A DNA stretch of 64,000 nt from an uncultured Actinomycetes bacterium (lineage in GTDB: Bacteria > Actinomycetota > Coriobacteriia > Anaerosomatales > CAVRZR01). Location: NCBI GenBank assembly GCA_963817255.1, contig CAWFNT010000003.1:66126-130125 (forward strand), written 5' to 3'. The notes under the pieces are model-generated. The model was given only the letters and a program-made list of their open reading frames with translations, was not told where the DNA came from and did not search any database. Of the stretch, positions 4,368-45,927 are shown piece by piece. How positions within the stretch are numbered: position 1 is the first letter of the stretch; every line of letters begins with the position of its first letter. Position numbers and translations under genes: made by a program.

Positions 4368-4866
4368 GGTGCCGCGCGTGCGCGTCGCGGCCCTGATGTG
4401 CGTCGATGGCCGCATCGTGTGCGTTCGTCACAGAGCCGGCTCGAGGACCTACCACTTGCTCCCCGGCGGGGGCGTGATGTATCGCGAGACCATCCGACAC
4501 GCTCTCGAGCGCGAAGTTCGCGAAGAGACCGGCCTCGAGATCGCGATCGGCGATCCGCTCTTCATAAGCGACACGATCGATCCGAACGGCTCGCGGCACG
4601 TCGTGAACCTCACCTTCGGCGCCGAGGTGACGGGCGGCAGCATCACGTCGAGTCCTGATGACCACCGGGTCGAGGCCGTCGACCTCATCGAACCCGCCGA
4701 CCTGCCGTCGCTCGATCTGCGTCCGCCGCTCGCCCCGCATATCCTCCGCGTCCTGCAGGACCCGACGGCGCCGAGAGCCGCATACCTCGGACCGCTCTTC
4801 ACCGGAGCATCGACCACGTCGGCCGTAGAGCCAACCGGCCGCCGCCAGCAGAAGGGTGACGCGTGA
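4348..4866 (+). CDS. NUDIX hydrolase
   Basis: Nudix box [24 protein letters not shown]. The start is uncertain; in-frame GTGs at 4369 and 4378 would avoid the overlap with dut. Confidence 0.8.
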
Positions 4867-20124: not shown

Positions 20125-21111
20125 TCACACGGCCTGCGCGAGCGCCGAAAGCTGCTCGTTCGTGCCGAGCACGACGAGTCGGTCCCCTGCCATCAGAACC
20201 CGGTCGAACGAAGGGTTCGTGTCGATGGCTCCGTCCGAGCCGCGTATTGCCAGGATGAACGCCCCGAAGCGGTCGCGAACGGCCGACTGCCGGATCGACT
20301 GCCCGACGATCGGAGACGATGGGGGGAGGTCCATCTCCTGCAGCCGGTACTCGACCCCGGCATCGTGCGTCACGAGGTCGAGGTAGTCCGCCACGAACGG
20401 ATGCAGCACGAGGCTCGCCATTCGGCGGCCGCCGATGACGGTCGGCGTGATGACCCTGTCGACGCCCGCCTTGATGAGCTTCGACTCGGAGGACTCGGTC
20501 GCCGAGCGTGAAACCACGAACAGCCCGGGATTGAGTGTCTTGGCCGTCACCGTCACGAAGAGGTTGTCGGCGTCTTGATCGAGCGCGGTGATGAGACTCG
20601 CCGCCCGTGCGATCCCCGCGGCCTGCAGAGTCTCCTCCTCGGTCGCGTCTCCCTGGACGTAGAGCCAACCCTCCGCCTTCGCCTGTTGTATCCGGGCGTC
20701 GGCAGACTCGACGACCACGAACGGTGCGCCCTCCTCGGCGAGTTCTCTGGCGACCACCTTACCCACCCGCCCGATACCCGCAATGATGTGGTGCCCCGAG
20801 AGCTGGTCGATCTCCTTGCTCATGCGACGTCCCTCCAACATACCCTTGAGGTGCCCCTCGACGAAGAAGTCGATGAGAGTACCGAACGAGAAACCGATAG
20901 CGCCGACGCCGACGATCACGAGCGCCATCGTGAAGGCGCGACCGGCGTCGGAGAGCCTGTGGACCTCGGTGAATCCCACCGTGCCCACGGTGATCACGGT
21001 CATGTACAGCGCATCGAAGACGGGCCAGCGCTCGATCAGCGCGTAGCCGAGCGTGCCGAACACGACGACGGCGACCAGGAGGAATCCGGCGACGACGAGT
21101 CTGCGCGTCAT
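20125..21111 (-). CDS. Two-TM pore + RCK (TrkA-N/TrkA-C) channel protein, MthK-like, with an atypical selectivity filter
   Basis: Trimmed to the ATG that overlaps the hpt stop. Two TM segments flank the pore sequence TVITVGTVGFTEV, followed by a Rossmann GIGRVG motif and a TrkA-C domain. Confidence 0.8.
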   Translation of the reverse strand: MTRRLVVAGFLLVAVVVFGTLGYALIERWPVFDALYMTVITVGTVGFTEVHRLSDAGRAFTMALVIVGVGAIGFSFGTLIDFFVEGHLKGMLEGRRMSKEIDQLSGHHIIAGIGRVGKVVARELAEEGAPFVVVESADARIQQAKAEGWLYVQGDATEEETLQAAGIARAASLITALDQDADNLFVTVTAKTLNPGLFVVSRSATESSESKLIKAGVDRVITPTVIGGRRMASLVLHPFVADYLDLVTHDAGVEYRLQEMDLPPSSPIVGQSIRQSAVRDRFGAFILAIRGSDGAIDTNPSFDRVLMAGDRLVVLGTNEQLSALAQAV

Positions 21112-21659
21112 CACCGGTGAAGCGCTTCCTCTTTGAGGGTCGCGATGTAGGGCAGGTTGCGGTAACGGCCCCGAAGATCCAGCCCGTAGCCCACCACGAA
21201 GTGGTCGGGGATCTCGAAGCCGAGGTGCGCGATGGGCACGTCCGCGATGCGGCGCACGTCCTTGTCGAGCAACGCACATACCTCGAGGCTCGCCGGATTG
21301 CGGGCCCTCAGAAGCCGAAGCACGTAGTTCACCGTGAGTCCGGTGTCGATGACGTCTTCTACGAGGATGACCGCCTTGCCCGAAATGTCCTCGTCCAAGT
21401 CCTTGGTGACTCGCACGACGCCGCCTTGCCCGGGCGCATATGGAGTGACCGCCATGAAGTCGAGGTGGAGGGGCGCGTCGATGGCCCGCACCAGGTCGGC
21501 GAGGAAGACGATCCCGCCCCTGAGCACGGTCACCAGACGGAGTTCGCGCCCGGCGTACTCGGACGTGAGGGCCTCGCCGAGTTCGGCCACACGTCTGCCG
21601 ATGTCCTCCTGGGTCAGAAGGACCGCATCGCAGACGTCCGGGAGGGCCGGTGTGGCCAT
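21111..21659 (-). CDS. hpt: Hypoxanthine(-guanine) phosphoribosyltransferase
   Basis: 182 aa with PRPP motif VILVEDVIDTGLT and a typical C-terminus (FVVGYGLDLRGRYRNLPYI). Confidence 0.9.
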   Translation of the reverse strand: MATPALPDVCDAVLLTQEDIGRRVAELGEALTSEYAGRELRLVTVLRGGIVFLADLVRAIDAPLHLDFMAVTPYAPGQGGVVRVTKDLDEDISGKAVILVEDVIDTGLTVNYVLRLLRARNPASLEVCALLDKDVRRIADVPIAHLGFEIPDHFVVGYGLDLRGRYRNLPYIATLKEEALHR

Positions 21660-21662
21660 GGG

Positions 21663-22103
21663 CTACTGCTCCGCGTCCGGGTCCTTGACCACGACTCCGC
21701 CCCCGACTCGCTGCGGCTGATCCTCCGCAGCCAGGCCGAAGCGGTGAAGCAGGCGGCGGAAGTCTTTCTGGTAGAAGATCTTGATGTTCACGTCGGGGTA
21801 GAGTTCCTTCAACCGCCTGACCTTGCGGTTCTTCTTGGTCACAAGCTTCTGGTTCATGGTCGTGAGCTCGATGTAGAGATCGAAATCGGGCAGGTAGAAG
21901 TCCGGGCTGAACGACGCGATGACGTTGCCGTTCGAATCCCACTCGATGGGAAACGTGGTCGGCTCGTATTCCCATCTCACCTGATAGAACTCCAGGATCT
22001 CAGCGGCAACCCGCTCGCTCGGATGAGCGAAGTCGATCTCCTCGACCGAGGCGTGGGAAGGCGCGTCGGTCATCTGCTCGTCGTCCCCGGGCTCGGAGGC
22101 CAT
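21663..22103 (-). CDS. Hypothetical protein, possible PD-(D/E)XK nuclease-like fold
   Basis: 146 aa. The segment SPDFYLPDFDLYIELTT...K resembles the D..(D/E)xK core of restriction-endonuclease-like proteins. This is a weak, pattern-only call. Confidence 0.5.
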   Translation of the reverse strand: MASEPGDDEQMTDAPSHASVEEIDFAHPSERVAAEILEFYQVRWEYEPTTFPIEWDSNGNVIASFSPDFYLPDFDLYIELTTMNQKLVTKKNRKVRRLKELYPDVNIKIFYQKDFRRLLHRFGLAAEDQPQRVGGGVVVKDPDAEQ

Positions 22104-22106
22104 TCC

Positions 22107-22814
22107 CTAGCCAAGGTCCTCGAAGACCCGACCGAGCGCTCGCCTCAGCAAGCTACCCTTCAGTTCGTTCGTGAGCGACGTGAGTTCTGCGAGGTTCTCC
22201 ATCAGTTTCTGACGGGCCTCAGGCGTCCGGTGCAGGGCGCCGGGCATCAGGATCTGTGAGAAGAACGCTGCCTCCCTGTCGGCGAAGGTCTCGTAGATCC
22301 GAAGGTGGCGCGGTTCGACGCCGAAACGCCTCAAGTCCCATGTGGCGTGAACGATGGCCGCGTCCCCGCGGGCTACTTCGTCGCCGCGATCGCCCTTCGC
22401 TATCTCGATGAGGCCGAATTCGGCGAGCTCGCGCACGAACGACTCGGGCACGCCGAGCGCGGCGGGAATCTCGCCGACAAGTATCGCCTGCACCTCGTCG
22501 AGCGGGAGTGAGATCGGCTCGGCGATCGATGCGTTCGTTTGGCGCAACTCCGGCGGGACGCGGCCGCGGTCGAAGTCGGCAAGCTTCTCCCGAATGACGG
22601 CCAAAGGCAGGAAGTGGTCGCGCTGCAATCTCAGCACGAGCTCCACTCGTTGCAGATCTGCCTGAGTGAACTTGCGATACCCGCCCGGCGTGCGCTCCGG
22701 AGAGACGAGACCCTCGTCTTCGAGGAACCGGATCTTGGAGATGCTCAGGTCCGGATACGACCCTACCAGGCGATCTACGACCTCGCCTATCGTCATGTAG
22801 TCGCGTCCGCTCAT
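22107..22814 (-). CDS. MerR-family transcriptional regulator (FtsR-like by synteny)
   Basis: N-terminal MerR HTH (MTIGEVVDRL...ISKIRFLEDEGLVSPERTPGGYRKFT). It sits immediately downstream of the FHA gene, as in the actinobacterial gcvH-garA-ftsR neighbourhood. Confidence 0.8.
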   Translation of the reverse strand: MSGRDYMTIGEVVDRLVGSYPDLSISKIRFLEDEGLVSPERTPGGYRKFTQADLQRVELVLRLQRDHFLPLAVIREKLADFDRGRVPPELRQTNASIAEPISLPLDEVQAILVGEIPAALGVPESFVRELAEFGLIEIAKGDRGDEVARGDAAIVHATWDLRRFGVEPRHLRIYETFADREAAFFSQILMPGALHRTPEARQKLMENLAELTSLTNELKGSLLRRALGRVFEDLG

Positions 22815-23260
22815 AGCGGCTCCCCCCCGGATATGTAGAGCATCTGGAATCTGCCGACTTGCACGACATCGCCGGTCGAAAGGCGCGCCGAGTCGACCAG
22901 CACCCCGTTCACGTACGTCCCATTGAGAGAGCCCGCGTCGGTGATCTTGACCTCTCCCCCGCCGGTCTCGACGACCGCGTGATTGCGTGAGACGGTCACG
23001 TCGTTGAGGAAGACGTCGCTGTCCGGGTCCCGGCCCAGAGTGAGTCGCGGACGGTCCACGTAGAAGCGTTCTCCCAGCTCGGGTCCCTTGCGCACGACCA
23101 GCAGCGGACCCTCGGCATACTCGAGCTGCTCGCCCGATTCATCGAGACCGGTCTCGATGGGCGGGAAGGATTCGGTGATCCCCTCCACGCGCGCACCACA
23201 CGCGGGGCACAAGGCCTCGCCCGGGGTGACATCGCGACCACACGCGGGGCACTCGGACAT
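22811..23260 (-). CDS. FHA-domain protein with an N-terminal zinc ribbon (GarA/OdhI-like position)
   Basis: CPACG...CPACG zinc ribbon followed by an FHA core (TLGRDPDSDVFLNDVTVSRNHA...SLNGTYVNG). Confidence 0.85.
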   Translation of the reverse strand: MSECPACGRDVTPGEALCPACGARVEGITESFPPIETGLDESGEQLEYAEGPLLVVRKGPELGERFYVDRPRLTLGRDPDSDVFLNDVTVSRNHAVVETGGGEVKITDAGSLNGTYVNGVLVDSARLSTGDVVQVGRFQMLYISGGEPL

Positions 23261-23283
23261 CTCAGGCTCCGTCCTGCACGAAC

Positions 23284-23550
23284 TCAGCCCTGGTCTTCGA
23301 AGCCGAATTCGCGACGCTCGAACGCATCGGAGATCTGGGCTTCGAGGGCCTCCAGGACCTCCGGCTGCTCCATCACGTGCCGGACACGCTCGTCGCTGAG
23401 CCGATTCCGCACAAACGGGTCTTGCAGCACCTCGGTCAGCCGACGGCCGTTGTTGACCTCACGGATCACGTACTCGACGACGCGCTGCTCGGCCTCGTCG
23501 GTAGCCAGTTCATCCAGTAATGCCTTCACTCGCTCGCTGATCGTGGGCAC
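23284..23550 (-). CDS. Small hypothetical helical protein
   Basis: GTG at 23550 with GAGGAG 8 nt upstream. The protein is 88 aa and acidic, with no recognised domain. Confidence 0.5.
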   Translation of the reverse strand: MPTISERVKALLDELATDEAEQRVVEYVIREVNNGRRLTEVLQDPFVRNRLSDERVRHVMEQPEVLEALEAQISDAFERREFGFEDQG

Positions 23551-23673
23551 TCCACCACTCCTCGTGTCTCCGTCGACGGCTGCCGAGCCGGTCGCCCTCG
23601 GCCCGCGTTCACGCCGGGCAGCGCGCAACGGCGTGTCGGCTCGTCGTGAATGACCACCCGGGTACGATCTCTG

Positions 23674-24003
23674 TCATTCCTCCGAGCCGAGATCGAGGTC
23701 ATCGTCCTGCAGAGGTGCGGTGACGTCGAAGCGAGACGCCCCCCGCAGGTCGCTCGCGAGGATGTTGATGAGGCGGTCGACGTCCCGGCCGGTGATGACG
23801 TCCGCGCCCGCTTCTCGCTCACCTTTCATGCGGTTCACGAGCTCGGCTCTGAGGATGTCGATCTTCCCGTGGAGCACCCGGCGTCTGTACGAGATCTTCT
23901 GCTCCTCCTCGTACAGCTCGTCAAGCAAAGCCCTGAGCTCCTCGTTGGTCTTGTTCTCGAGGTCGAGCAGGGCGTCCTCGCCCGGGTCAGAATGCGCAGA
24001 CAT
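23674..24003 (-). CDS. Small coiled-coil protein with an RsiG-like c-di-GMP-binding motif (single copy)
   Basis: ATG at 24003 preceded by GGAGGA. The segment EQKISYRRRVLHGKID fits E-x3-S-x2-R-x3-(Q>H)-x3-D. Confidence 0.45.
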   Translation of the reverse strand: MSAHSDPGEDALLDLENKTNEELRALLDELYEEEQKISYRRRVLHGKIDILRAELVNRMKGEREAGADVITGRDVDRLINILASDLRGASRFDVTAPLQDDDLDLGSEE

Positions 24004-24131
24004 GCATCCTCCGCTCACCAGCGGCGCCAACACAGACGTCGCCTCGTCGTACAAGCCTCTTGGGCCGATTGTAACCTATACCGAGGCAGCCGACCCCCGT
24101 TCTCATGAGAGTATTCAGCGCACCTCGACGT

Positions 24132-24956
24132 CTACTCTAGGCTGATACTACGAGAGTGGTGGCCGAGCGGGACCGCGATCAAACCCGAGTCGGCTATGGC
24201 CTGCGCGTACGCCTCCTCGACGAGCGAGGGCGTGCCCGGCGCGAACGTGCCGCCGAATAGACGCTCGAAGGCGACGCGAACCGCCTCTGTGATGTTCTCC
24301 GAGGACGGAACGCGCTCGGCGAGATCGGCGAGCGTGGCGGTCCTGGTGCGGAGCGCTTCCGCCTCCTCGGGCGACAGGCGGAACACACGGGCCTCTCGCT
24401 CGACGTCGCGCGCGAACACGAACGATCCGTGCTGAAGGACCGTGTCCTTGTGCCAGACCTGCGCGCTGCCGCTCAGCTTGAGCGTGCCCGCCGAGACGTC
24501 GGCGTGCGTTGCGTGCAGGTAGCATGCGCCGGAGGATCTGGGACCCCGGGGCCTGTGCGTGAGACCGGCATCCACGCCAAGCAGCGCATAGGCTTCGACG
24601 AGCGCGGCGCACAGGTACCGGTAACTGGCCGCCGTGCCTCTGGGCACGCCGTCCTCGATACCGGCCACCACGGAGTAGGTGACCTCCGCGTCGTGCAGCA
24701 CGCCGCGGCCCCCCGTGAAGCGCCGCACGACGTCGATACCCTCGTCGCGGCACGCTTCGAGGTCAACGGAGTCGAGTGGCTGGAAACGGCCGAGCGTGAC
24801 CGTCGGCCGGCTCCATCGGTAGAGTCGCAACGTGGCCGGCGAACGACCGGCAGCGCGCTCTAGGAGGATCGCGCGGTCCAGCGCCATGTTGCGCACGCCG
24901 TCGTTCGGCGCATCCTCGGCGATGAGGCGCAACGAACCTCGTGCGAGAGAAGTCAT
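24132..24956 (-). CDS. Lipoate-protein ligase / octanoyltransferase family protein (LplA/LipM-like)
   Basis: Trimmed to the ATG that overlaps the gcvPB stop. It has a BPL/LPL catalytic domain (RRFTGGRGVLHD, KLSGSAQ) and sits downstream of gcvH/P. Confidence 0.8.
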   Translation of the reverse strand: MTSLARGSLRLIAEDAPNDGVRNMALDRAILLERAAGRSPATLRLYRWSRPTVTLGRFQPLDSVDLEACRDEGIDVVRRFTGGRGVLHDAEVTYSVVAGIEDGVPRGTAASYRYLCAALVEAYALLGVDAGLTHRPRGPRSSGACYLHATHADVSAGTLKLSGSAQVWHKDTVLQHGSFVFARDVEREARVFRLSPEEAEALRTRTATLADLAERVPSSENITEAVRVAFERLFGGTFAPGTPSLVEEAYAQAIADSGLIAVPLGHHSRSISLE

Positions 24957-26473
24957 TCTTGACCGGGCCGCCACCGCACGTCTACCTGCTTCGCCGCACG
25001 CGCCTCGTCGAGCCTCCGCACCGGGGTCGTGAACGGAGCCTCGCGAACCAAGTCGGGATCGGAGGCTGCCTCGTCGCCGATCGCGGCGAGCGCGAGAACG
25101 AGGGATTCGAGGGCGTCGAGCCCTTCGGTCTCCGTGGGCTCTATCATCATCGCTTCGTCCACGATCAACGGAAAGTAGACGGTTGGCGGGTGGATCCCGT
25201 AGTCGAGAAGTCTCTTGGCGACGTCGAGGGTTCTGATCCCATGCTCGGCGCGGAGACGCTTGCCCGAGATCACGAACTCGTGCATGCAGGTCCGGTCGTA
25301 GGGAAGGTCCCACGCGCTGTGGCGCAATCGCTCCTTCAGGTAGTTCGCCGAAAGGACGGCCTGTTCGGCGACCTCCTCCAGGCCGTCGGCTCCGAGCGCG
25401 CAGATGTAGGCGTACGCACGCACGAGGACGCCGACATTCCCGAGGAAGGAGCGCACCCTGCCGATAGAGAGAGCGGGCATCGCAAGCCCGTACGTGCCGT
25501 CGCCCGAACGCTCGACCACCGGTCCGGGCAGGTAGGGTGCGAGGATGTCGCGCACAGCCACCGGGCCCGCACCGGGACCTCCCCCGCCGTGAGGCGTCGA
25601 GAACGTCTTGTGGACGTTGATGTGCATGACGTCGAAGCCCATGTCCCCCGGACGCGCCTTGCCGAGGATGGCGTTCAGGTTCGCGCCGTCGCCGTACGCA
25701 AGGGCCCCGACGGCGTGGACGGCATCCGTGATCTCAAGGATGTGCTCGTCGAACAGCCCGAGGGTGTTCGGGTTGGTGAGCATGATCGCCGCGACATCGG
25801 TGTCGAGCGCCGTCTTCAGCGCGTCGACGTCAACACCTCCGCGCTCGTTCGACGGCACTTGCGTGACCTCGTAGCCGCACATCGTCACCGTCGCGGGGTT
25901 GGTGCCATGTGCGGTGTCGGGGATCAGGACCCGGCGCCGGACATCGCCTTGGTCCCGGAGGTACGCACGAATGGCCAGCAGGCCAGTGAGCTCACCGTGG
26001 GCTCCTGCCGCCGGCTGCAGGGACACCGCGTGCAGCCCCGCTATCTCGGCGAGAGCATTCGAAAGGCCCCAGAGCAGCTCCAGGAGGCCCTGCACTGATT
26101 CGACGGGCTGGTAGGGGTGCACCGCGGCGAAGCCAGGTAGCCTCGCTGCCCATTCGTTCAGCCTGGGGTTGTACTTCATCGTGCACGAGCCGAGCGGGTA
26201 GAACCCGGAATCCACGCCGAAGTTCGCGTTCGCCAGCGCCTCGAAGTGCCTTGCGATCTCGACCTCGGTCACGTGCGGCAGCATTGGGAGTCGCGCGCGA
26301 ACCTGTCCCGCGAGCGCCGGATCGAGGTCGAGAGAGGGCACATCGAGGGCGGGTGCCATGACGCAACGCGATTCGGGCGCGCCCATCTCAAAGATCAGCG
26401 GGCGCGGACGCCTCGGCACCGAGAACCCGTCGGCCGTGTCGGCCCTGTGGGAGGAGTGCTCCTCGGCGTCCAC
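24953..26473 (-). CDS. gcvPB: Glycine dehydrogenase (decarboxylating), subunit 2
   Basis: 506 aa. It carries the PLP-lysine region (HINVHKTFSTPHGGGGPG), which is typical of GcvPB. Confidence 0.92.
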   Translation of the reverse strand: MDAEEHSSHRADTADGFSVPRRPRPLIFEMGAPESRCVMAPALDVPSLDLDPALAGQVRARLPMLPHVTEVEIARHFEALANANFGVDSGFYPLGSCTMKYNPRLNEWAARLPGFAAVHPYQPVESVQGLLELLWGLSNALAEIAGLHAVSLQPAAGAHGELTGLLAIRAYLRDQGDVRRRVLIPDTAHGTNPATVTMCGYEVTQVPSNERGGVDVDALKTALDTDVAAIMLTNPNTLGLFDEHILEITDAVHAVGALAYGDGANLNAILGKARPGDMGFDVMHINVHKTFSTPHGGGGPGAGPVAVRDILAPYLPGPVVERSGDGTYGLAMPALSIGRVRSFLGNVGVLVRAYAYICALGADGLEEVAEQAVLSANYLKERLRHSAWDLPYDRTCMHEFVISGKRLRAEHGIRTLDVAKRLLDYGIHPPTVYFPLIVDEAMMIEPTETEGLDALESLVLALAAIGDEAASDPDLVREAPFTTPVRRLDEARAAKQVDVRWRPGQE

Positions 26474-27837
26474 TACTCCCCCGCTTCTTCGGCGCAGAAC
26501 TCCACGAAGGCGTCCATCTGCGAACGTGTGCGACGCTCAGTGACTGCAAGGAGCAGCAGGTCATGGGCATTGCCGAGACCCTCGTCCGGTCGCTCCATAT
26601 AGGAGAGCGCGTAGCCGGCAAGGAAGCCGCGCTCGAGCGCCCGCGACTGCAGCCGCTCGACGTCTCCGCGGTATCGCAGCACGAATTCGTGTGCGAACGG
26701 CGTATCCCACACCGCCTCGAACAGGTCCGTGGCCAGCAGCCGATCTCGCAGGTAGTGAGCCCTGGTGACGCACGACGTGGCGATGTCCGCGAGCCCGCTC
26801 GCGCCGACCGAGGCCAGATAGACGCTTGCCGCCAGCGCCGTCAGCGCGTGGTTCGAGCAGATATTGCTCGTCGCACGCTCGCGGCGGATGTGTTGCTCGC
26901 GCGTCTGCAGCGTCAGCACGAAGCCCGTGCGCCCGTCGACGTCCACCGTTCTGCCGACTACTCGACCCGGCATCTGGCGTGCGTGATTCTCGCGGCAGGT
27001 GAAGTAGCCGAATCCGGGACCGCCGAACGACATGGGCACGCCGAGAGGCTGTCCCTCACCGACCACGATGTCCGCGCCGAACGACCCAGGAGGTTCGAGC
27101 ACGCCAAGGAGAAGCGGGTTCGAGGCCACCACGAGCAGCGCCCCGACGGCGTGCGCGATCTCGGCCAACGCGGCCAGGTCTTCGAGGCACCCGTAGAACG
27201 TGGGATGCGATACGAGCACCGCGGCGGTGCTGTCGTCGACGAGAGCGGCGAGACGTTCGAGATCGGTGCGACCTCGTGCGGTGGGACACTCGGTGGCGTC
27301 GAGCACGCCAGCATCCGCGTAGGTCGCAAGCGTGCTTCTCCACTCAGGATGAACGCCCGCGGATACCACCACCGACGTGCGCCTGGTGACGCGCGCCGCC
27401 ATCAAGGCCGCTTCGGCCAAGGCGGTGGCGCCGTCGTACATCGACGCGTTCGCGATCTCCATCCCCGCGAGCTCGGCCATCATCGTCTGGAACTCGTAGA
27501 TAGCCTGCAGCGTGCCCTGGCTCACTTCGGCCTGGTAGGGCGTGTATGCGGTGAAGAACGCCGGCTTCGAGATCATCGCGTCGACCACCGGCGGCACGTA
27601 GTGGTCGTAGCACCCGGCGCCGAGGAAGCTCACGATGCGGTCGGCGTCGAGATTCCCGGCCGAGAGGGACTTCAGGCGTTCGGCGAGCTCGGGCTCGGCC
27701 ATCGCAGGCGGCAACGCGAGCGAGCGGTTGAGCCGAGCGGCCTCGGGGATGTCGTCGAAGAGCTCGTCAACGCTTCCAGCCCCGACAGCGCGAAGCATCG
27801 CTTCGCGTTGCTCGCACGAGACAGGAATGAAGCGCAT
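26473..27837 (-). CDS. gcvPA: Glycine dehydrogenase (decarboxylating), subunit 1
   Basis: 454 aa with the typical motifs FLGAGCYDHYVP and YTPYQAEVSQGTLQ. Confidence 0.92.
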   Translation of the reverse strand: MRFIPVSCEQREAMLRAVGAGSVDELFDDIPEAARLNRSLALPPAMAEPELAERLKSLSAGNLDADRIVSFLGAGCYDHYVPPVVDAMISKPAFFTAYTPYQAEVSQGTLQAIYEFQTMMAELAGMEIANASMYDGATALAEAALMAARVTRRTSVVVSAGVHPEWRSTLATYADAGVLDATECPTARGRTDLERLAALVDDSTAAVLVSHPTFYGCLEDLAALAEIAHAVGALLVVASNPLLLGVLEPPGSFGADIVVGEGQPLGVPMSFGGPGFGYFTCRENHARQMPGRVVGRTVDVDGRTGFVLTLQTREQHIRRERATSNICSNHALTALAASVYLASVGASGLADIATSCVTRAHYLRDRLLATDLFEAVWDTPFAHEFVLRYRGDVERLQSRALERGFLAGYALSYMERPDEGLGNAHDLLLLAVTERRTRSQMDAFVEFCAEEAGE

Positions 27838-27843
27838 GGACGC

Positions 27844-28230
27844 CTAAGCGCCTTCGGAGATGAACGCCTCGTACTCCTCGGCAGACAGCAACGCGTCCAG
27901 CTCTGCGGGATTGTCGATGCTCACCTTGATCATCCAGCCCGCGCCGTAGGGATCCGAGTTGACGATCTCCGACTCGTCGGCGAGCGCCTCGTTGAGCGCG
28001 CTCACCTCTCCGGTCAGAGGGCTGTAGAGTTCCGAGACGGACTTGACCGACTCGATCTCACCGAACGTCTCACCCACGGCGACAGCGTCACCGGCATCGA
28101 CCTGCAGCTCGAGGTATACGACGTCGCCGAGCTGGTCTTGCGCGAAGTCGGTGATGCCAACGATGGCGGTGTCACCTTCCACCCGAACCCACTCGTGCTC
28201 CTTGGAGTACTTGAGATCGCTCGGATACAT
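27844..28230 (-). CDS. gcvH: Glycine cleavage system H protein
   Basis: Trimmed to MYPSDLKYSKEHEWV. The lipoyl-lysine motif ESVKSVSELYSP is present. Confidence 0.93.
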   Translation of the reverse strand: MYPSDLKYSKEHEWVRVEGDTAIVGITDFAQDQLGDVVYLELQVDAGDAVAVGETFGEIESVKSVSELYSPLTGEVSALNEALADESEIVNSDPYGAGWMIKVSIDNPAELDALLSAEEYEAFISEGA

Positions 28231-28270
28231 GCGGTGAAGCTCCTTTCGGTCGCTATCGATGCGCGCCACC

Positions 28271-29458
28271 TCAACGCGTCAGGGACGTGCTCTGCACGAA
28301 GGGCATCTTCTCCACGACCGCGCTTACGGCCTTGCGCCGCACCTGAACCTCGAGGCGCGTGCCGACCGCGGCGAGTTCGCTCGGCACGTATGCCGTCGCG
28401 ATTCCTGTCCCGAGGCTCGGAGAGAAGCTCCCGGATGCCACCTTACCGACCTCGTTCCCCTCGTGCAACACGGCAAAACCGCTGCGCGCTATGCCTTCGG
28501 CGAGGACGAGTCCGACGAGTCTCCTTCGGGGTCCTTGCTCGCGGATCTTCGCGATGGCCTCGCGGCCGACGAACTCGCTCTTGTCACCGGACACGACCCA
28601 ACCGAGTCCAGCGGAGATCGGATCGACGCCCCGGTCCATGTCGGTGCCGTGGAGGCGATAGCCCATCTCCAGGCGGAGCGTGTCCCGCGCCCCAAGCCCC
28701 GCGGGCGTGACCTGTTCGAAACTCAGGATCGCGCGCCACAGAGCGACGGCCTGAGAAGCGTGGCAGATCAACTCAACGCCGTCCTCCCCCGTGTACCCGG
28801 TCCGCGCCACGAGCACGGGTACCGAGCCGATGCGGGCCTCGGCGATATGGAAGCGTGGCGGAACGTCCACGGCTGCCCCGTCACCCGCGAGTTCCTCGAA
28901 GACGCCGAGAGCGGCGGGGCCCTGCAGGGCGATGAGAGCCGTGCGATCCGATTCGTCTGCGAGTTCCACGAGTCCCTGGGCGGGCGTCACGCCCTCGCTG
29001 CCGCCCACGATGCGCAGGCCTTCAGGGCAGTGTCGCTCGAGCCAGTCCAAGTCGGTCGTGCGGTTCGCGGCGTTGGCGATGACGAGGTACTCCAAATCGC
29101 CCGAGTGGTACACGAAGAGGTCGTCGATGATGCCGCCGTCCTCGTCGCACATGAGGGTGTACTGCGCCGACCCAAGATCGGCGATACGTCGCAGGTCGTT
29201 CGTGAGCAGCGACTGCAGGAAGTCGAAGGCGCCGAAGCCGAAGACGCGGAACGTTGCCATGTGCGAGATGTCGAACACCCCGGCCGAGGAGCGGACCGCG
29301 CGGTGCTCCTCGAGGATGCCGCCGTACTGGATGGGCATCTCGTACCCGGCAAATGGCACCATTCGAGCGCCCAGTGCGAGATGCTCCTCATACAGCGGCG
29401 TTCTTCTCAGCAATTCGGCCACGTCAGGCCTCCCGTTCCGCGGTGTTCGTGCCGTCAT
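28271..29458 (-). CDS. gcvT: Glycine cleavage system aminomethyltransferase T
   Basis: The protein shows RRTPLYEEHLALGARMVPFAGYEMPIQY. The start is taken at the ATG at 29458; the ORF is open to 29545. Confidence 0.9.
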   Translation of the reverse strand: MTARTPRNGRPDVAELLRRTPLYEEHLALGARMVPFAGYEMPIQYGGILEEHRAVRSSAGVFDISHMATFRVFGFGAFDFLQSLLTNDLRRIADLGSAQYTLMCDEDGGIIDDLFVYHSGDLEYLVIANAANRTTDLDWLERHCPEGLRIVGGSEGVTPAQGLVELADESDRTALIALQGPAALGVFEELAGDGAAVDVPPRFHIAEARIGSVPVLVARTGYTGEDGVELICHASQAVALWRAILSFEQVTPAGLGARDTLRLEMGYRLHGTDMDRGVDPISAGLGWVVSGDKSEFVGREAIAKIREQGPRRRLVGLVLAEGIARSGFAVLHEGNEVGKVASGSFSPSLGTGIATAYVPSELAAVGTRLEVQVRRKAVSAVVEKMPFVQSTSLTR

Positions 29459-29523
29459 ATACCCGAATAGCGCCGTGTGTCCGGCGGCGGACCCGGCGTC
29501 GCCTTCAATTCCGGTCGAGATCC

Positions 29524-30723
29524 TCAGCCGAAGATGCTCCGCCACCAGCGTCCGACGTCGATGCGGATGCGTTCGAAGAACCCGGGGGCTTCGACAGAGG
29601 CGCCGGCGACGAGCGGAACGGTCGCCACCATGCGTCCGCCCTGCGTGAACACGAGCACGCCGAGTGTCTCGTCCCGACTGACCGGCGCCTCGATCCGCGA
29701 GTTGTAGCGTGCCGTCGCTTCGACCGGGCCGTCGACCGTGAATACCGGTGCGGTCGCGGCCTGCGACGCGACGACGGGCACGGAGCGGTCGTCAAAGTCC
29801 GTCACTCGCGCGCGACCGACAACGGTTCCGGTGGCTATGAGACTCCGGCTGCGGTAGCGCGCAAAGCCCCAGTCGAGAAGGGCCGCTGCCGTGTCGAAGC
29901 GCTCTCGTTCCGAGTGGGCGCCGAGGACGACGGCGATCAGCTCCTCGCGGCCACGACGCGCCGAGGCGATGACGTTGTATCCCGCATCGCTCGTCCAACC
30001 GGTCTTGATGCCGTTGGCGCCGCGGTAAGTACCGAGCAGCTTGTTGGTCGTCTCGAGAGTGTGCCGGTCCGCTCCTTGGCCGATGACCGCCGTGCGCTTC
30101 CTGACGATCTCGCGAATGGCCCGGTAGGTCATGGCGTACCTCGCGAGCGTGGCGAGATCGGCTGCCGTGCTGTAGTGCCCGGGCTCGTCGAGCCCGTAGG
30201 AGTTGGCGAACTTCGTATCGTTGAGACCGAGCTCGGCGGCCTTCTGATTCATCATGCTCACGAAAGCGTTCTCGTTCTTCGACGTCCGAAGAGCCAGAGC
30301 GAGCGCCGCCTCGTTGCCCGACTTGACCAGCGCGGCGTCGAGCGCCTCACGAACGGTGAGCGTTTCTCCCGCGCGAAGCCCGGCTTCCGACTCCCCTATT
30401 TCCATCGCGCTCGACGGAACCCTGAGCGTGTCATCGAGGGAGAGCCGGTCGAGCACTACGATCGCGGTCATGAGCTTGGTCACGCTCGCGATCGCTCGCC
30501 TATCGGAGGCGTCGCGCGACCATAGAACGCGCCCATCTGAGGTCACGAGCGCGCCCGCCGGGATGTTGACGTCTGGCGCCAGCTGGGCGAGGCTGCCAGT
30601 GCCGACCTTTCTTTCCGAGACGACGTCGGCCGGGAGCACCTCCGCCCGTGCGGGAAGCGGCGTGCATATAGCCGCACTCGCAAGGAGGCAAGCGACGAGT
30701 GTGCGAGCCACAAAATGCTTCAT
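29524..30723 (-). CDS. D-alanyl-D-alanine carboxypeptidase (S11, PBP5-type)
   Basis: Signal peptide MKHFVARTLVACLLASA..., plus SxxK (SVTKLM), SxN (SGNEAA) and KTG (KTGWT) motifs. Confidence 0.88.
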   Translation of the reverse strand: MKHFVARTLVACLLASAAICTPLPARAEVLPADVVSERKVGTGSLAQLAPDVNIPAGALVTSDGRVLWSRDASDRRAIASVTKLMTAIVVLDRLSLDDTLRVPSSAMEIGESEAGLRAGETLTVREALDAALVKSGNEAALALALRTSKNENAFVSMMNQKAAELGLNDTKFANSYGLDEPGHYSTAADLATLARYAMTYRAIREIVRKRTAVIGQGADRHTLETTNKLLGTYRGANGIKTGWTSDAGYNVIASARRGREELIAVVLGAHSERERFDTAAALLDWGFARYRSRSLIATGTVVGRARVTDFDDRSVPVVASQAATAPVFTVDGPVEATARYNSRIEAPVSRDETLGVLVFTQGGRMVATVPLVAGASVEAPGFFERIRIDVGRWWRSIFG

Positions 30724-40848: not shown

Positions 40849-43101
40849 CTATGGATGGGGGGTCTCCCAGAAGGCGTACACGTGGTCGTCGGGCGACGGG
40901 CCGAGTGGCTGGCCGGATGCGTCCGCCCAGATAGCGTGCACGAAGTCGTGGTGCTCGCAGTGCTTTGGCGGCTGGATGACGTCGACACCGTGACCGATCT
41001 CGATTGCCAGTTTGTAGACATTGGCGGCCGTTTGACCGTCGAAGTTGCTCCACATATGACCCTCGAAGGTATTGGAGTTGCCCACCATGATGCCGCTCGT
41101 CTGACAGACGACGTCACCCTTCCAAGTTCCTCCAAGAATGTAGAACCCGTGGGGGTTGGCCGTCGTGCCTGTCCACAGCGACTCGACGCGGATGTCGCTC
41201 GCGTCGCCGCCGTTGACGGTCACGTTGATCGTGCCGGTTACCCACCGGTTCTTGACGTAGATATGGATTGGCCCCGCGGTCACGTTCATGACCAGCTTGG
41301 TGCCATTGTTCAACGACAGGGCGTCGAGGAAGTAGAGACCCGAACCGTTAAACGTGAGCGTGTCTCCGCCACCACCGTTGATTGCCGCCCAGTACCCGGG
41401 AGTGAGGGTCGCGCTCTTGCCGTTTCCGGGCGGGAGCGGGTTGGGGGTAGGCGGACCAGCAGGGAACGGGGGCGGGGGCACGAACGTCGGCTTGAAGTAC
41501 GTGCCGAGCAGCCCGACCGCCGGCCAAGCGGGATTGTTGACGATGAAGTCTCCCGAGACCTGAGATGGGAACTGCCCGAACTTCGAGTCGGTGATCATGG
41601 AGCCCCAGATGTGGGTCTGACCCCCGCCGTTTGCGTAGATGTTGCCCACGCTGCCGACGTTGCCGTAGATCTGAGTCCCGGTCCCGAGCTTTACGGTCAG
41701 TCTCACGGTAGGAGCCAAGGTCGTGTACATGCCCTTGCCCCACACAAGAAACTCGCCGTTCGCGCAGGGGAAGAGGCTGAAGAAGCTCACCGGTCCGTAC
41801 TGGTAGACAAGCGTGGTGTTGCCCGGAATTGGATTGGGGAACGGGGTGGGATCGAACGCGGGCGTCGACCCGGCATTGAAGACCGAGTCGGTGAGTGTGA
41901 CGTTGTACGCTGGCTCACTGCCCACGTTCTGAACCACGAACGCAAACCAGATGGGGGTGCCGAAGGGCACGAACGGGCCGGGATAGGTGTCCGCGTCCAG
42001 GTACTCCTTCGTCGGATCGCTCGGGTCCTTGCCGTCGATCGAGATCATCTTCTTGACGATGATGACCGGCGGGGTGCCGGTGGGATCCCTGTGGGGGATT
42101 ATGCTGACGCCGACGTTGTCGGTGAGCGGATTGGCGCCAGTCCCACCACCAGGTACATTCACACCGTCAGAGAAGCTCTCGGGGGTCAGTGCGATGAGCC
42201 CGACCTCGCCGGGAGTGGCAGGGCTCTTCCCTGCCAGATCACCGACACCCAGGGTACCGCTCCAAGCCAGGTCGGTGATCTTGAGCGCCAGGGTCTCTGT
42301 CGCGCTGCTCGGGTCCGTAGGATCCGCATGGTTGTAGAACGACCCGGTCACGGCGACTTGGTCGCTGTTCGCACCCGTGACCGAGACATTCATCACGAGC
42401 CGATACCAGTGATCTCCCGATGTCGAACCGATCCGCTGCGTGAGCGAGAGACCCGGGTTGGTGTCTGCCTCGAAGAGTTGGTCAACGTCGATGGACGCGA
42501 GTTCCGTGCCGGTCCCCGCGATCTGGTAGACGAGGCTCAACCTGGCATGGTCGTGATTGTTGCCGCCACCGTGCTGGGCAAGCAGTGCCAGTCCGTCCAT
42601 GGCGTCTTCGTCATACATCGCGAGGATCCCGCCGGAGGAGTTGTGTCCGGGTGAGGCGAACAGCACGTCCGCCTTGAGCGTGACGCCCCCGGGCACGGTG
42701 AAGTCGACCAGACTCCGCGTGCCCGCGGTCTTGTCGGCGGGTGTCGTGTCATAGACCGTGATCCAGCTCTGGCCGGCTGCTGGAGGACCACCGCTCCTTT
42801 GACCGGTGAAGTTGATCGCGAAGTCGTCCCCGCCAACGACGGCGCGCGAAGGGGAACCGGCAGTCGCGATCAGGTTGGGGTTCGCGTTGATGTAGTCCTG
42901 CTCGTACGGGTCGGCCTTCCCCCACCAGATGACGTCCCGATACAGGCCGGTCGTCTGGTTGTTCACGGCGGTGTTCACCGTGTTGTCGTAGTCAGCCGGC
43001 AACAGCGCGTTCGCCGAAACGACCGCCGGACCAGCGACTATCGCGGCGATGGCCATCACCGCTATGCCGAACGTAAGTACCCTCCGCAATCTGTTCTTCA
43101 T
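40849..43101 (-). CDS. Large secreted protein, paralog A (750 aa): signal peptide, ConA/LamG-like N-domain, Ig-like middle domain, Gly/Asn/Thr-rich beta-helix-like region, His/Cys-rich tail
   Basis: ATG at 43101 preceded by GAGGAGG. Signal peptide MKNRLRRVLTFGIAVMAIAAIVAGPAVVSANA. The domain labels are pattern-based guesses only. Confidence 0.85.
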   Translation of the reverse strand: MKNRLRRVLTFGIAVMAIAAIVAGPAVVSANALLPADYDNTVNTAVNNQTTGLYRDVIWWGKADPYEQDYINANPNLIATAGSPSRAVVGGDDFAINFTGQRSGGPPAAGQSWITVYDTTPADKTAGTRSLVDFTVPGGVTLKADVLFASPGHNSSGGILAMYDEDAMDGLALLAQHGGGNNHDHARLSLVYQIAGTGTELASIDVDQLFEADTNPGLSLTQRIGSTSGDHWYRLVMNVSVTGANSDQVAVTGSFYNHADPTDPSSATETLALKITDLAWSGTLGVGDLAGKSPATPGEVGLIALTPESFSDGVNVPGGGTGANPLTDNVGVSIIPHRDPTGTPPVIIVKKMISIDGKDPSDPTKEYLDADTYPGPFVPFGTPIWFAFVVQNVGSEPAYNVTLTDSVFNAGSTPAFDPTPFPNPIPGNTTLVYQYGPVSFFSLFPCANGEFLVWGKGMYTTLAPTVRLTVKLGTGTQIYGNVGSVGNIYANGGGQTHIWGSMITDSKFGQFPSQVSGDFIVNNPAWPAVGLLGTYFKPTFVPPPPFPAGPPTPNPLPPGNGKSATLTPGYWAAINGGGGDTLTFNGSGLYFLDALSLNNGTKLVMNVTAGPIHIYVKNRWVTGTINVTVNGGDASDIRVESLWTGTTANPHGFYILGGTWKGDVVCQTSGIMVGNSNTFEGHMWSNFDGQTAANVYKLAIEIGHGVDVIQPPKHCEHHDFVHAIWADASGQPLGPSPDDHVYAFWETPHP

Positions 43102-43252
43102 GATTACCTCCTCTGTGCCTCCACGAGTGAAGATGTGGCGATACGACTCGCCCGTTGGTGTTTCATCGAATGGCATACCCCCAAACAGCGTGCCTCCCCA
43201 GTTGCCTTCCACGATTGCGACTGGATTCGCGTCTTCTGTCCCAAGAACGCGA

Positions 43253-43278
43253 AAACCGGCCAGTTACCAGGCCGGTTT
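43253..43278 (-). terminator. Hairpin aaaccggcc-N8-ggccggttt followed by TTTTCGCG on the minus strand, ~150 nt upstream of paralog A
   Basis: 9-bp stem plus a 4-U tract, so it is intrinsic-terminator-like. It is duplicated at 46088-46113. Confidence 0.55.
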
Positions 43279-43540
43279 GACTAGTAGCTCCCCGTCGCCA
43301 AAGTCACCATGTTGCGGCCACGGATCAACGCTTCCTGATTTCCGAGCTATGCAATTGAGTGACTGTTGCTATCCTCCCCCGAGCCCTGTGCCCTCAAACA
43401 CCCGGCAGCTGATGAGCGGCATGCGCCCGGGCGAAACAACCACTATCCACCCCAACATTCACCGTCCGAGTCTCAGTCCGAATCGACTCGCGGCTCCCCG
43501 TCACCATGATCGCCGCCGCGCGGCGACGGACTAGCGCTCG

Positions 43541-43680: not shown

Positions 43681-45927
43681 CTATGGATGCGGCGTCTCCC
43701 AGTAGGCGTACACGTGGTCGTCGGGCGACGGGCCAAGCGGCTGGCCCGCTGCGTCGGCCCAGATGGCGTGCACGTAGTCGTGGTGCTCGCAGTGCACCGG
43801 CGGCGGGATGACGTCGGCGCCGTGCTGGATGTCTATCGAGAGCGCGATTGCGCTCGCGGCAGGACCGTACTTGCCGTTCCAGTCGCTCCACATATAGCCC
43901 TCGAAGGTGCCCGAGTTCTGGCCGGTGCCGAACTTGATACCGCTCGTCCGGCAGATGACGGTGCCTGCCCAGTAGCCTCCCGCGTGCGAGAAGCCGTAGG
44001 GCTGGCTGCCGGTCCCGGTCCACTGCGACTCGAGAGAGATCATGCTGGCGTCGCCGCCGGTGAGGAAGCTCTTCGTGCCGCTTCCCCAGCTCGCCTGGTT
44101 GAGCACGTAGATCTTGACCGGGCCGTTCGTCAGGTCGAAGTAGAGCTTCCCGGCGTTGGCGAAGCTCAGGGACTTGAAGAAGTAGACCGCACCTCCGGGC
44201 GCGCCGGTGAAGTAGAGCTTCACCCCGCCGCCGCCCTTGATGTCGCCATAGGAGTTGCTCAGCCCGTTCCAGGCCAGCGGGGTGAAGCTGCCGTTGTTGC
44301 CGATGTTCGGCACGACGGGCTGGTCCACGGCCGGTATGGCAACGGAAGGCGGCAGCACCGGCGGCGTGGGCACGCCGGGCACGTTGAAGGCGCCCGCCAC
44401 GTGCGGCGGAGACTGTCCGATGAACTGAGACATCGTGGTGAGGTCGCCGTGGATCCAACCGGTGCCGTTGATATCCACGTCACCGACTGCTTCCACGTTG
44501 CCCCACACGTCCGACCCCTGTCCGATGTGGACGGCGGACTTCCACAGGCTCGATGTCGTCTGCGTGCCCCTGCCCCACACGAGCGTGTTGCTCGCGCAGG
44601 GGAAGAGGCTGAAGAAGCTCACGGGGCCGTACTCGTATACAAGCGTGGTATTGCCCGGGAAAGGATTGGGGAACGGGGTGGGATCGAACGGGGGCGTCGA
44701 TCCGGCATTGAAGACGGAGTCCGTCAGTGTGACGTTGTATGCCGGCTCATCGCCCAGGTTCTGGACCACGAACGCGAACCAGATGGGCGTGCCGAAGGGC
44801 ACGAACTCACCGGGATAGGTGTCCGCGTCCAGGTACTCCTTCGTCGGATCGCTCGGGTCCTTGCCGTCGATGGAGATCATCTTCTTGACGATGATCAACG
44901 GGTCGGTGCCGTGGGTTTCCGAGAACGGGATGATGCTGATGCCGACGTTGTCGGTGTGCGGATCGGCACCTGTCCAACCGTTCGCCACACCATCACTGAA
45001 GTTCTCAGGGGTCATCGCGATGAGCCCCACCTCGCCGGGAGTAGCGGGGCTCTTCCCTGCCAGGTCACCGACACCCAGAGTACCGCTCCAAGCCAGGTCG
45101 GTGATCTTGAGCGCCAGGGTCTCTGTCGCGCTGCTCGGGTCCGTGGGATCCGCATGGTTGTAGAACGACCCGGTCACGGCGACTTGGTCGTTGTTCGCAC
45201 CCGTGACCGAGACATTCATCACGAGCCGATACCAGTGATCTCCCGATGTCGAACCGATCCTCTGCGTGAGCGAGAGACCCGGGTTGGTGTCTGCCTCGAA
45301 GAGTTGGTCAACGTCGATGGACGCGAGTTCCGTGCCGGTCCCCGCGATCTGATAGACGAGGCTCAACCGGGCATGGTCGTGATTGTTGCCGCCGCCGTGC
45401 TGGGCAAGCAGTGCCAGGCCGTCCATGGCGTCTTCGTCATACATCGCGAGGATCCCGCCGGAGGAGTTGTGTCCGGGTGAGGCGAACAGCACGTCCGCCT
45501 TGAGCGTGACGCCCCCGGGCACGGTGAAGTCGACCAGACTCCGCGTGCCCGCGGTCTTGTCGGCGGGTGTCGTGTCATAGACCGTGATCCAGCTCTGGCC
45601 GGCTGCTGGAGGACCACCGCTCCTTTGCCCGGTGAAGTTGATCGCGAAGTCGTCCCCGCCAACGACGGCGCGCGAAGGGGAACCGGCAGTCGCGATCAGG
45701 TTGGGGTTCGCGTTGATGTAGTCCTGCTCGTACGGGTCGGCCTTCCCCCACCAGATGACGTCCCGATACAGGCCGGTCGTCTGGTTGTTCACGGCGGTGT
45801 TCACCGTGTTGTCGTAGTCAGCCGGCAACAGCGCGTTCGCCGAAACGACCGCCGGACCAGCGACTATCGCGGCGATGGCCATCACCGCTATGCCGAACGT
45901 AAGTACCCTCCGCAATCTGTTCTTCAT
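43681..45927 (-). CDS. Large secreted protein, paralog B (748 aa)
   Basis: ATG at 45927 preceded by AAGGGAGG. The N-terminal ~330 aa are almost identical to paralog A, the C-terminal half is diverged, and the last ~40 aa are conserved again. Confidence 0.85.
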   Translation of the reverse strand: MKNRLRRVLTFGIAVMAIAAIVAGPAVVSANALLPADYDNTVNTAVNNQTTGLYRDVIWWGKADPYEQDYINANPNLIATAGSPSRAVVGGDDFAINFTGQRSGGPPAAGQSWITVYDTTPADKTAGTRSLVDFTVPGGVTLKADVLFASPGHNSSGGILAMYDEDAMDGLALLAQHGGGNNHDHARLSLVYQIAGTGTELASIDVDQLFEADTNPGLSLTQRIGSTSGDHWYRLVMNVSVTGANNDQVAVTGSFYNHADPTDPSSATETLALKITDLAWSGTLGVGDLAGKSPATPGEVGLIAMTPENFSDGVANGWTGADPHTDNVGISIIPFSETHGTDPLIIVKKMISIDGKDPSDPTKEYLDADTYPGEFVPFGTPIWFAFVVQNLGDEPAYNVTLTDSVFNAGSTPPFDPTPFPNPFPGNTTLVYEYGPVSFFSLFPCASNTLVWGRGTQTTSSLWKSAVHIGQGSDVWGNVEAVGDVDINGTGWIHGDLTTMSQFIGQSPPHVAGAFNVPGVPTPPVLPPSVAIPAVDQPVVPNIGNNGSFTPLAWNGLSNSYGDIKGGGGVKLYFTGAPGGAVYFFKSLSFANAGKLYFDLTNGPVKIYVLNQASWGSGTKSFLTGGDASMISLESQWTGTGSQPYGFSHAGGYWAGTVICRTSGIKFGTGQNSGTFEGYMWSDWNGKYGPAASAIALSIDIQHGADVIPPPVHCEHHDYVHAIWADAAGQPLGPSPDDHVYAYWETPHP

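Follow-up and report, generated by a model that had tools for sequence, protein, structure and literature searches.

To our knowledge, the switch made up of RsiG, cyclic di-GMP (c-di-GMP) and WhiG is the only one in which a second messenger is known to arm an anti-sigma factor. In Streptomyces venezuelae, RsiG (6PFJ, 6PFV, deposited as 'AmfC protein') is a monomer of ~176 amino acids (aa) that has two motifs for binding c-di-GMP and a connecting loop over the nucleotide, whereas the single-motif RsiGs have been described as homodimers (Schumacher et al. 2021, PMC8325347). The motif has been published as E(X)3S(X)2R(X)3[Q/H](X)3D, with His common in place of Gln and capable of the same stacking contact; five of five single-motif RsiGs co-purify with WhiG partners, and alone these proteins bind c-di-GMP weakly, at 12-25 uM (PMC8325347). 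The RsiG of Conexibacter woesei (RsiGCw, Cwoe_3492), a single-motif protein of the His form, binds fluorescent c-di-GMP with a Kd of 25 uM alone and of 1.7 uM with WhiG, and leaves a c-di-AMP probe unbound (PMC8325347); in Rubrobacter, the RsiG-WhiG switch governs type IV pili. Published surveys place single-motif RsiGs only in Rubrobacteria and in Thermoleophilia, the class of three among the five published proteins (PMC8325347), and do not mention Coriobacteriia; the RsiG-bearing genomes examined in them also encode a WhiG homologue. Here we describe an rsiG-like gene of 109 codons on the minus strand of a 64,000-nucleotide (nt) stretch of contig CAWFNT010000003.1, from an uncultured Actinomycetes bacterium (the window), which probably encodes a single-motif, c-di-GMP-armed anti-sigma factor of the RsiG family. 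The family and the His form of the motif are known already, and the picture of how the system works is unchanged; new here are the lineage, a strict synteny of rsiG with an FHA-domain gene and ftsR, a conserved tail of ~20 residues, and an inserted gene for an 88-aa protein.

The translation of the open reading frame (ORF), initiated at ATG, reads MSAHSDPGEDALLDLENKTNEELRALLDELYEEEQKISYRRRVLHGKIDILRAELVNRMKGEREAGADVITGRDVDRLINILASDLRGASRFDVTAPLQDDDLDLGSEE. A TTG codon at 24054, 51 bases further upstream, offers an alternative start that would give a product of 126 aa; the ATG is to be preferred, because a GGAGGA ribosome-binding site lies immediately 5' of it, a database protein of 109 aa is 100% identical to the product, and the N-termini of homologues coincide with this start. 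The product contains one intact copy of the motif, E34-QKI-S38-YR-R41-RVL-H45-GKI-D49. The initial annotation had seen this motif on a long helix of a 109-aa protein, and both the regular-expression (regex) search and the AlphaFold2 helix spanning residues 20-64 bear it out. It had also treated the His as a deviation from an otherwise 'near-perfect' motif, a description that has to be abandoned: the published definition already reads [Q/H], and the His form of C. woesei binds both c-di-GMP and WhiG, so that the motif is a perfect match to a characterised variant. The same pattern, E-x3-S-x2-R-x3-[QH]-x3-D, matches a second time at 4788 (minus strand), in a non-coding frame opposite a NUDIX gene, and shuffled windows gave 0.1 matches each. 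Since a bare motif of this kind thus arises by chance at the scale of the window, it is weak evidence in itself, and the case for RsiG identity rests on homology.

Compilation of the homology searches revealed that (i) the protein matches the Pfam family RsiG-like (PF22802), scoring 70.5 bits where the curated cut-off is 27 (E = 9.8e-20) and covering positions 3-65 of the 65 in the profile, and its homologues bear a precomputed assignment to the same family, (ii) its significant matches in the PDB are RsiG chains only, namely S. venezuelae RsiG (both motif helices, 4.5e-11) and Rubrobacter radiotolerans RsiG (7LQ2, 7LQ3, 7LQ4; E ~2e-9) when searched from the single sequence, with E-values of 2.6e-12 to 1.4e-11 for RsiG chains when the family profile was used (phmmer and hmmsearch), (iii) hhalign against an alignment of single-motif proteins (Thermoleophilia/Rubrobacter-like) gives a probability of 99.9% (E = 7.6e-32) over residues 9-88, a match of 80 columns that extends from the N-terminal segment through long helix and Gly-containing linker and includes the C-terminal helix, and (iv) the five motif residues pair one to one with E59/S63/R66/Q70/D74 in the RsiG of R. 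radiotolerans. The hhalign target consisted of ~85-aa proteins, mostly without a source name, the named ones being labelled Solirubrobacterales, together with one Rubrobacter-like protein of the Gln type. The relationship to RsiG that the initial annotation had proposed, naming a profile search as its test, is accordingly favoured by Pfam, by PDB matches between 1e-9 and 1e-12 and by hhalign alike, and its assignment to the single-motif type agrees with the published description of such homodimers. From these sequence comparisons, the gene is almost certainly a genuine member of the RsiG family.

Conservation points in the same direction. Out of 2,534 clusters found at E <= 1e-3, 134 homologues were retrieved (99-148 aa, identity down to about 66-68%), and every one of them has exactly one motif, always with His and with all five motif residues invariant; strong conservation extends across almost the entire protein, tail included. 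The motif is likewise present in 79 of 80 genome loci described below, a count biased to His by the scan peptide used (SYRRRVLHG). AlphaFold2, run with a 30-sequence alignment, predicts helices at residues 7-13, 20-64 and 72-86 (mean pLDDT 68, with 81-90 in the long helix), and this layout, in which a helix of 45 residues is flanked by a short helix on its N-terminal side and by another on its C-terminal side, is the one reported for R. radiotolerans RsiG (PMC8325347). By analogy with that protein, the long helix is presumed to dimerise into an antiparallel coiled coil (PMC8325347), and the helix at 72-86 would be the counterpart of the C-terminal extension by which single-motif RsiGs contact WhiG, with an inferred role in sigma-factor binding (PMC8325347). 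G66, G72, D74, L78, I79 and L82 are conserved around this last helix in the homologue alignment; the protein has glycines at positions 8, 61, 66 and 72, those at 66 and 72 being invariant. The tail that follows, with R87, G88, S90, R91, D93 and V94 invariant among the homologues, is without counterpart in the ~85-aa RsiGs of Thermoleophilia, which stop near residue 88.

Among the characterised proteins close to ours, the RsiG of C. woesei is likewise a small helical protein with the single motif E(X)3S(X)2R(X)3H(X)3D. Its Thermoleophilia relatives, including proteins from Conexibacter-labelled metagenome-assembled genomes (MAGs), share 46-62% identity with the window protein, and their genes lie in the same rsiG-FHA-ftsR order. 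Cwoe_3492 by name is not among the matches listed, and its orthology to the window protein is inferred from these MAG relatives. The Thermoleophilia proteins differ in lacking the DLRGxSRFDVT-acidic tail, and in their loci no 88-aa gene precedes the FHA gene. R. radiotolerans RsiG is of the single-motif homodimer type, has the three-helix layout predicted for the window protein, and can be aligned without gaps over a core of 46 residues in which all motif residues but one of the five are the same; it differs in having Gln where the window protein has His45, in having a known type IV pili regulon, and in that no sequence similarity is detectable beyond the core helix. A homology search with the 46-residue Rubrobacter PDB fragment yielded just one protein, of 78 aa, encoded on an 874-base-pair contig. 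With S. venezuelae RsiG, of which both motif helices match the window protein, the latter shares the family and, by family, the mode of holding a c-di-GMP dimer; having only one motif, it would have to dimerise. FlgM, the classical anti-sigma-28, is also a small protein that holds a sigma-28-family factor inactive, as proposed here, but it is unrelated in sequence (the rsiG-like protein has no FlgM match in Pfam), independent of nucleotides and released by secretion.

What the comparison displays directly is that the protein belongs to the family, that its motif is intact and strongly conserved, and that its predicted architecture matches. As for function, binding of c-di-GMP by the window protein is, by analogy, very probable, and well grounded in the measurements on the His variant, C. 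woesei RsiG; that it sequesters a WhiG2-type sigma factor in dependence on c-di-GMP is, on the same analogy, a probable further step, to be held with less assurance. In such a mechanism, modelled on the Rubrobacter complex, the long helices of two copies of the protein would join in an antiparallel coiled coil, the two E34/S38/R41/H45/D49 motifs would jointly clamp a partly intercalated c-di-GMP dimer, and His45 would stack on guanine as Gln does in the Streptomyces and Rubrobacter RsiGs. The loaded dimer would then sequester, by means of its flexible N- and C-terminal helices, a WhiG-type sigma factor (sigma-28 family, 'WhiG2' clade) encoded elsewhere in the genome, and falling c-di-GMP would release it. 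Two of the residues by which Rubrobacter RsiG makes polar contacts with WhiG, D39 and R77, correspond to the invariant D14 and R52 of the window protein, and a third, R72, to the conservative K47; E91 falls outside the aligned region. A WhiG partner is further favoured, indirectly, by the WhiG homologues that published surveys report for RsiG-bearing genomes, and by the sigma-28-type promoters of two more distant relatives described below.

Several observations weigh against this reading, most of them concerning the partner. No sigma-factor gene was found by Pfam scans of the ~60 ORFs of the window, and no sigma-28 homologue was detected by tblastn within 10 kb on either side of the gene in the 80 loci or the window, the queries being sequences of Escherichia coli FliA and Bacillus subtilis SigD. 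The window is also devoid of a WhiG-type promoter (TMAA-N15/16-GCCGAWAA), of which 0.1-0.2 would be expected, so that this result is uninformative. The 64-kb window being the part of the genome that was read, WhiG may be absent from the genome altogether; and since cultured Anaerosomatales are non-motile (PMC9686372), a flagellar sigma factor is not to be assumed. The same cultured organisms do have pili-like appendages (PMC9686372), which counts indirectly in favour of WhiG, the Rubrobacter switch being one for type IV pili. At the level of residues, K60 of Rubrobacter RsiG, another WhiG contact, is Q35 here; most of the RsiG-WhiG contacts in that complex are non-specific and hydrophobic (PMC8325347). 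Neither the tail nor the 88-aa neighbour has a counterpart in the characterised RsiGs. Finally, Foldseek comparison of the monomeric AlphaFold2 model with the PDB did not recover the RsiG structures and gave no meaningful match, a null result that we judged uninformative because the monomer model is a single long helix.

These points bear on what else the protein could be. That an unrelated helical protein here matches the motif by chance, as the bare regex hit in a non-coding frame of the window might suggest, is already refuted by homology: the Pfam E-value and the invariance of the motif in the 134 homologues remove a chance origin, as do PDB matches down to ~1e-12 and the 80 columns aligned by hhalign. 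We also think it very improbable that the protein is a relic of the RsiG family, a mere small coiled-coil protein without physiological affinity for c-di-GMP. The weak binding of single-motif RsiGs on their own would fit such a relic, but the His variant is a proven c-di-GMP binder, and neither five strictly invariant motif residues nor the conservation of nearly the whole protein would be expected of one.

A different function deserves more weight, though we hold it to be unlikely: the protein could be an RsiG-family c-di-GMP receptor whose partner is not, or not only, WhiG, and which acts within the rsiG-FHA-ftsR module, for instance by binding FtsR, the FHA protein or the 88-aa protein, so tying c-di-GMP to cell division. 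Wherever the downstream sequence is long enough, in 78 of 78 loci, the FHA gene and ftsR follow the rsiG-like gene, both in Thermoleophilia and in the Coriobacteriia-like group (in 26 loci of which the 88-aa gene intervenes); the genes are tightly packed on a single strand, no sigma-factor gene was detected nearby, and the clade-specific tail DLRGxSRFDVT and the inserted 88-aa gene suggest extra interactions. A literature search found no paper that names RsiG and FtsR together, and neither of the RsiG papers treats gene neighbourhood. Yet the synteny is no argument against WhiG, because Thermoleophilia, where three single-motif RsiGs bind WhiG partners, have the same order; and the tail and the 88-aa gene are not strictly co-occurring, as one locus (L027) has the tail without the gene. 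Long-conserved gene order around garA/ftsR is, moreover, common in Actinomycetota. The wider form of this idea strikes us as less probable still, namely that in apparently non-flagellated Coriobacteriia-like anaerobes the ancestral RsiG is part of a universally conserved actinobacterial FHA-FtsR division module and is not, or not only, an anti-sigma factor for WhiG, its loaded dimers binding FtsR, the FHA protein or the 88-aa protein through the tail. Were it true, c-di-GMP would be linked directly to division control, and the unbroken synteny would reflect what RsiG originally did, before sporulation took it over in Streptomyces. As it stands, the rsiG-FHA-ftsR linkage is a real regularity, and it could either point to an ancient tie of c-di-GMP to cell division or be mere conserved gene order. 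A WhiG-directed, c-di-GMP-armed anti-sigma factor is the reading that we retain as probable.

The distribution of the gene was examined by scanning a genome collection with the rsiG-like query, which gave 80 loci (L001-L080) whose taxonomic labels are those of the submitters. The closest loci, at 54-90% identity, belong to MAGs labelled Coriobacteriia, Anaerosomatales, Actinomycetes or Actinomycetota and to 'Coriobacteriaceae bacterium EMTCatB1'; next come loci at 46-62% identity to the window protein with Solirubrobacterales, Thermoleophilaceae or Conexibacter labels. Nearly all of the 80 are labelled Actinomycetota, in line with the restriction of RsiG to this phylum; two MAGs are labelled Eubacteriales and two are without a phylum label; one database homologue carries a submitter's label of Acidobacteria. 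Judged by these labels, the lineage would represent a modest extension of the range of single-motif RsiGs. The account given of RsiG evolution, in which the single-motif dimer precedes the twin-motif monomer, is built on five single-motif proteins, drawn from two classes; the present gene and its thousands of metagenomic relatives would, if the submitters' MAG labels are followed, put single-motif RsiGs in a third deep-branching group, of anaerobes labelled Coriobacteriia or Anaerosomatales, which fits and extends the idea that the single motif is ancestral. The window itself encodes pyruvate and indolepyruvate ferredoxin oxidoreductases and rubrerythrin, a gene content that fits an anaerobe such as the Anaerosomatales (PMC9686372). 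The features discussed here and below are listed in Table 1.

Table 1. Coordinates of the rsiG-like gene, its parts and neighbours, and of c-di-GMP-related features in the window
Feature	Coordinates	Strand	Basis or remark
rsiG-like gene, 109-aa single-motif RsiG-family protein	23674..24003	minus	ORF, Pfam PF22802, PDB RsiG chains, hhalign
c-di-GMP-binding motif (by family), E34-x3-S38-x2-R41-x3-H45-x3-D49	23857..23904	minus	regex
Long helix, residues 20-64, bearing the motif; presumed coiled-coil dimerisation helix	23812..23946	minus	AlphaFold2
C-terminal helix, residues 72-86, DVDRLINILASDL, after Gly-containing linker	23746..23790	minus	AlphaFold2; aligned with Thermoleophilia RsiGs through residue 88
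Clade-specific tail, residues 87-109, DLRGxSRFDVT(A/x)P(L/I/V) then acidic residues	23674..23745	minus	alignment
Candidate -10 hexamer TACAAT	24068..24073	minus	~65 nt upstream of the rsiG-like start codon
Complete glycine-cleavage set with split P protein (gcvT, gcvH, gcvPA, gcvPB) and lipoate-protein ligase	24132-29545	minus	directly upstream of the rsiG-like gene
88-aa conserved all-helical protein, GTG start	23284..23550	minus	between rsiG-like gene and FHA gene
Zn-ribbon + FHA-domain protein	22811..23260	minus	Pfam FHA 2.1e-18; NCBIfam OdhI 116 bits, below cut-off of 200
ftsR, MerR-family cell-division regulator	22107..22814	minus	NCBIfam NF050798, 212 bits against cut-off of 150
146-aa gene after ftsR	21663-22103	minus	PHROGs, weak likeness to PD-(D/E)XK nucleases/Holliday junction resolvases, 1.2e-7
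Two tandem membrane GGDEF + HD-GYP proteins	51132-53303 and 53291-55456	minus	Pfam GGDEF and HD_5
c-di-GMP-II riboswitch RF01786, full-length	43261-43344	minus	Rfam 57.2 bits, above gathering score of 53.5
Second c-di-GMP-II riboswitch match, RF01786	46096-46179	minus	Rfam 45.3 bits, below gathering score of 53.5; E = 6e-8

On the minus strand, the genes run in the order gcvT, gcvH, gcvPA, gcvPB, lplA, the rsiG-like gene, the 88-aa gene, the Zn-ribbon and FHA gene and ftsR, followed by the PD-(D/E)XK-like 146-aa gene, hpt, a TrkA-type K+ channel gene and apt. The gcv, FHA and MerR setting seen in the initial annotation is thus recovered, with Pfam and NCBIfam assigning the gcv genes, the FHA gene and ftsR around the rsiG-like gene. 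No glycine riboswitch was found at the Rfam gathering score by the gcv genes (24132-29545). The rsiG-like gene stands at the head of a tightly packed same-strand run with the FHA gene, whose product is the positional counterpart of OdhI/GarA, and ftsR, the start of which overlaps the stop of the FHA gene by 4 bases. The 146-aa product has no Pfam match; the position of its gene is kept in the Coriobacteriia-like loci. The 88-aa protein, with the core ...EERVVEYVIREVxNGRKLTExLxDPYVKNRL..., has orthologues in 26 loci, all of the Coriobacteriia-like group, and no profile match in Pfam, NCBIfam, PHROGs or the PDB. Its single-sequence AlphaFold2 model gave only non-significant Foldseek matches (E > 1); several were N-terminal domains of PilC/GspF, which we took as noise. 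As a phosphorylation site for the neighbouring FHA domain, Thr95 of the tail (T-x-P-[LIV]) was considered and rejected: several homologues lack the Thr or the hydrophobic residue at +3, and the FHA gene of Thermoleophilia accompanies an RsiG without the tail.

Upstream of the rsiG-like gene, 23 of the 25 sequences compared (24 Coriobacteriia-like loci plus the window) have a TA[C/G]AAT block, 18 of them with the TGn extension (TGnTACAAT form), and this block is the sole well-conserved stretch of an otherwise diverged spacer. From this alignment, the gene likely has its own promoter, of the housekeeping, extended -10 type and not WhiG-dependent. A scan of 21000-24400 for consensus elements returned no promoter and one terminator at chance level.

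Other genes of the window speak to the second messenger itself. The tandem GGDEF and HD-GYP proteins, which combine domains for making and for degrading c-di-GMP, are ~31% identical to each other, the active-site motif being GGDEF in one and SDEF in the other, with HDxGK...GYP in both; the initial annotation had counted three GGDEF-type proteins, and the Pfam domain scan gives two. Each of the two c-di-GMP-II riboswitch matches lies just upstream of one of two paralogues, of 787 aa (40849-43212) and 748 aa (43681-45927), which have a signal-peptide-like N-terminus and are almost identical over their first ~330 residues; neither of these secreted paralogues has a Pfam match. From these features, c-di-GMP signalling is clearly in use in the organism, as had been supposed.

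Two of the more distant relatives, L025 and L027, which have the rsiG-FHA-ftsR order and a similar tail, were the sole loci with strict matches to the WhiG promoter. Both display an exact sigma-28/WhiG consensus, TMAA-N16-GCCGATAA, at a syntenic site, where 0.1 strict matches would be expected by chance; the -35 and -10 elements (TAAA or TCAA, N16, GCCGATAA) are kept and the spacer has diverged. In both loci this promoter is followed by a conserved stretch of ~90 nt that matches no Rfam family at the gathering score and ends in a hairpin (GACTGAG...CTCAGTC) followed by a T-run; situated between a gene of ~100 aa and a comM-like gene, the stretch is a candidate small RNA. Promoter and stretch together occupy ~13650-13755 of L025 and ~13770-13875 of L027, on the minus strand in each.

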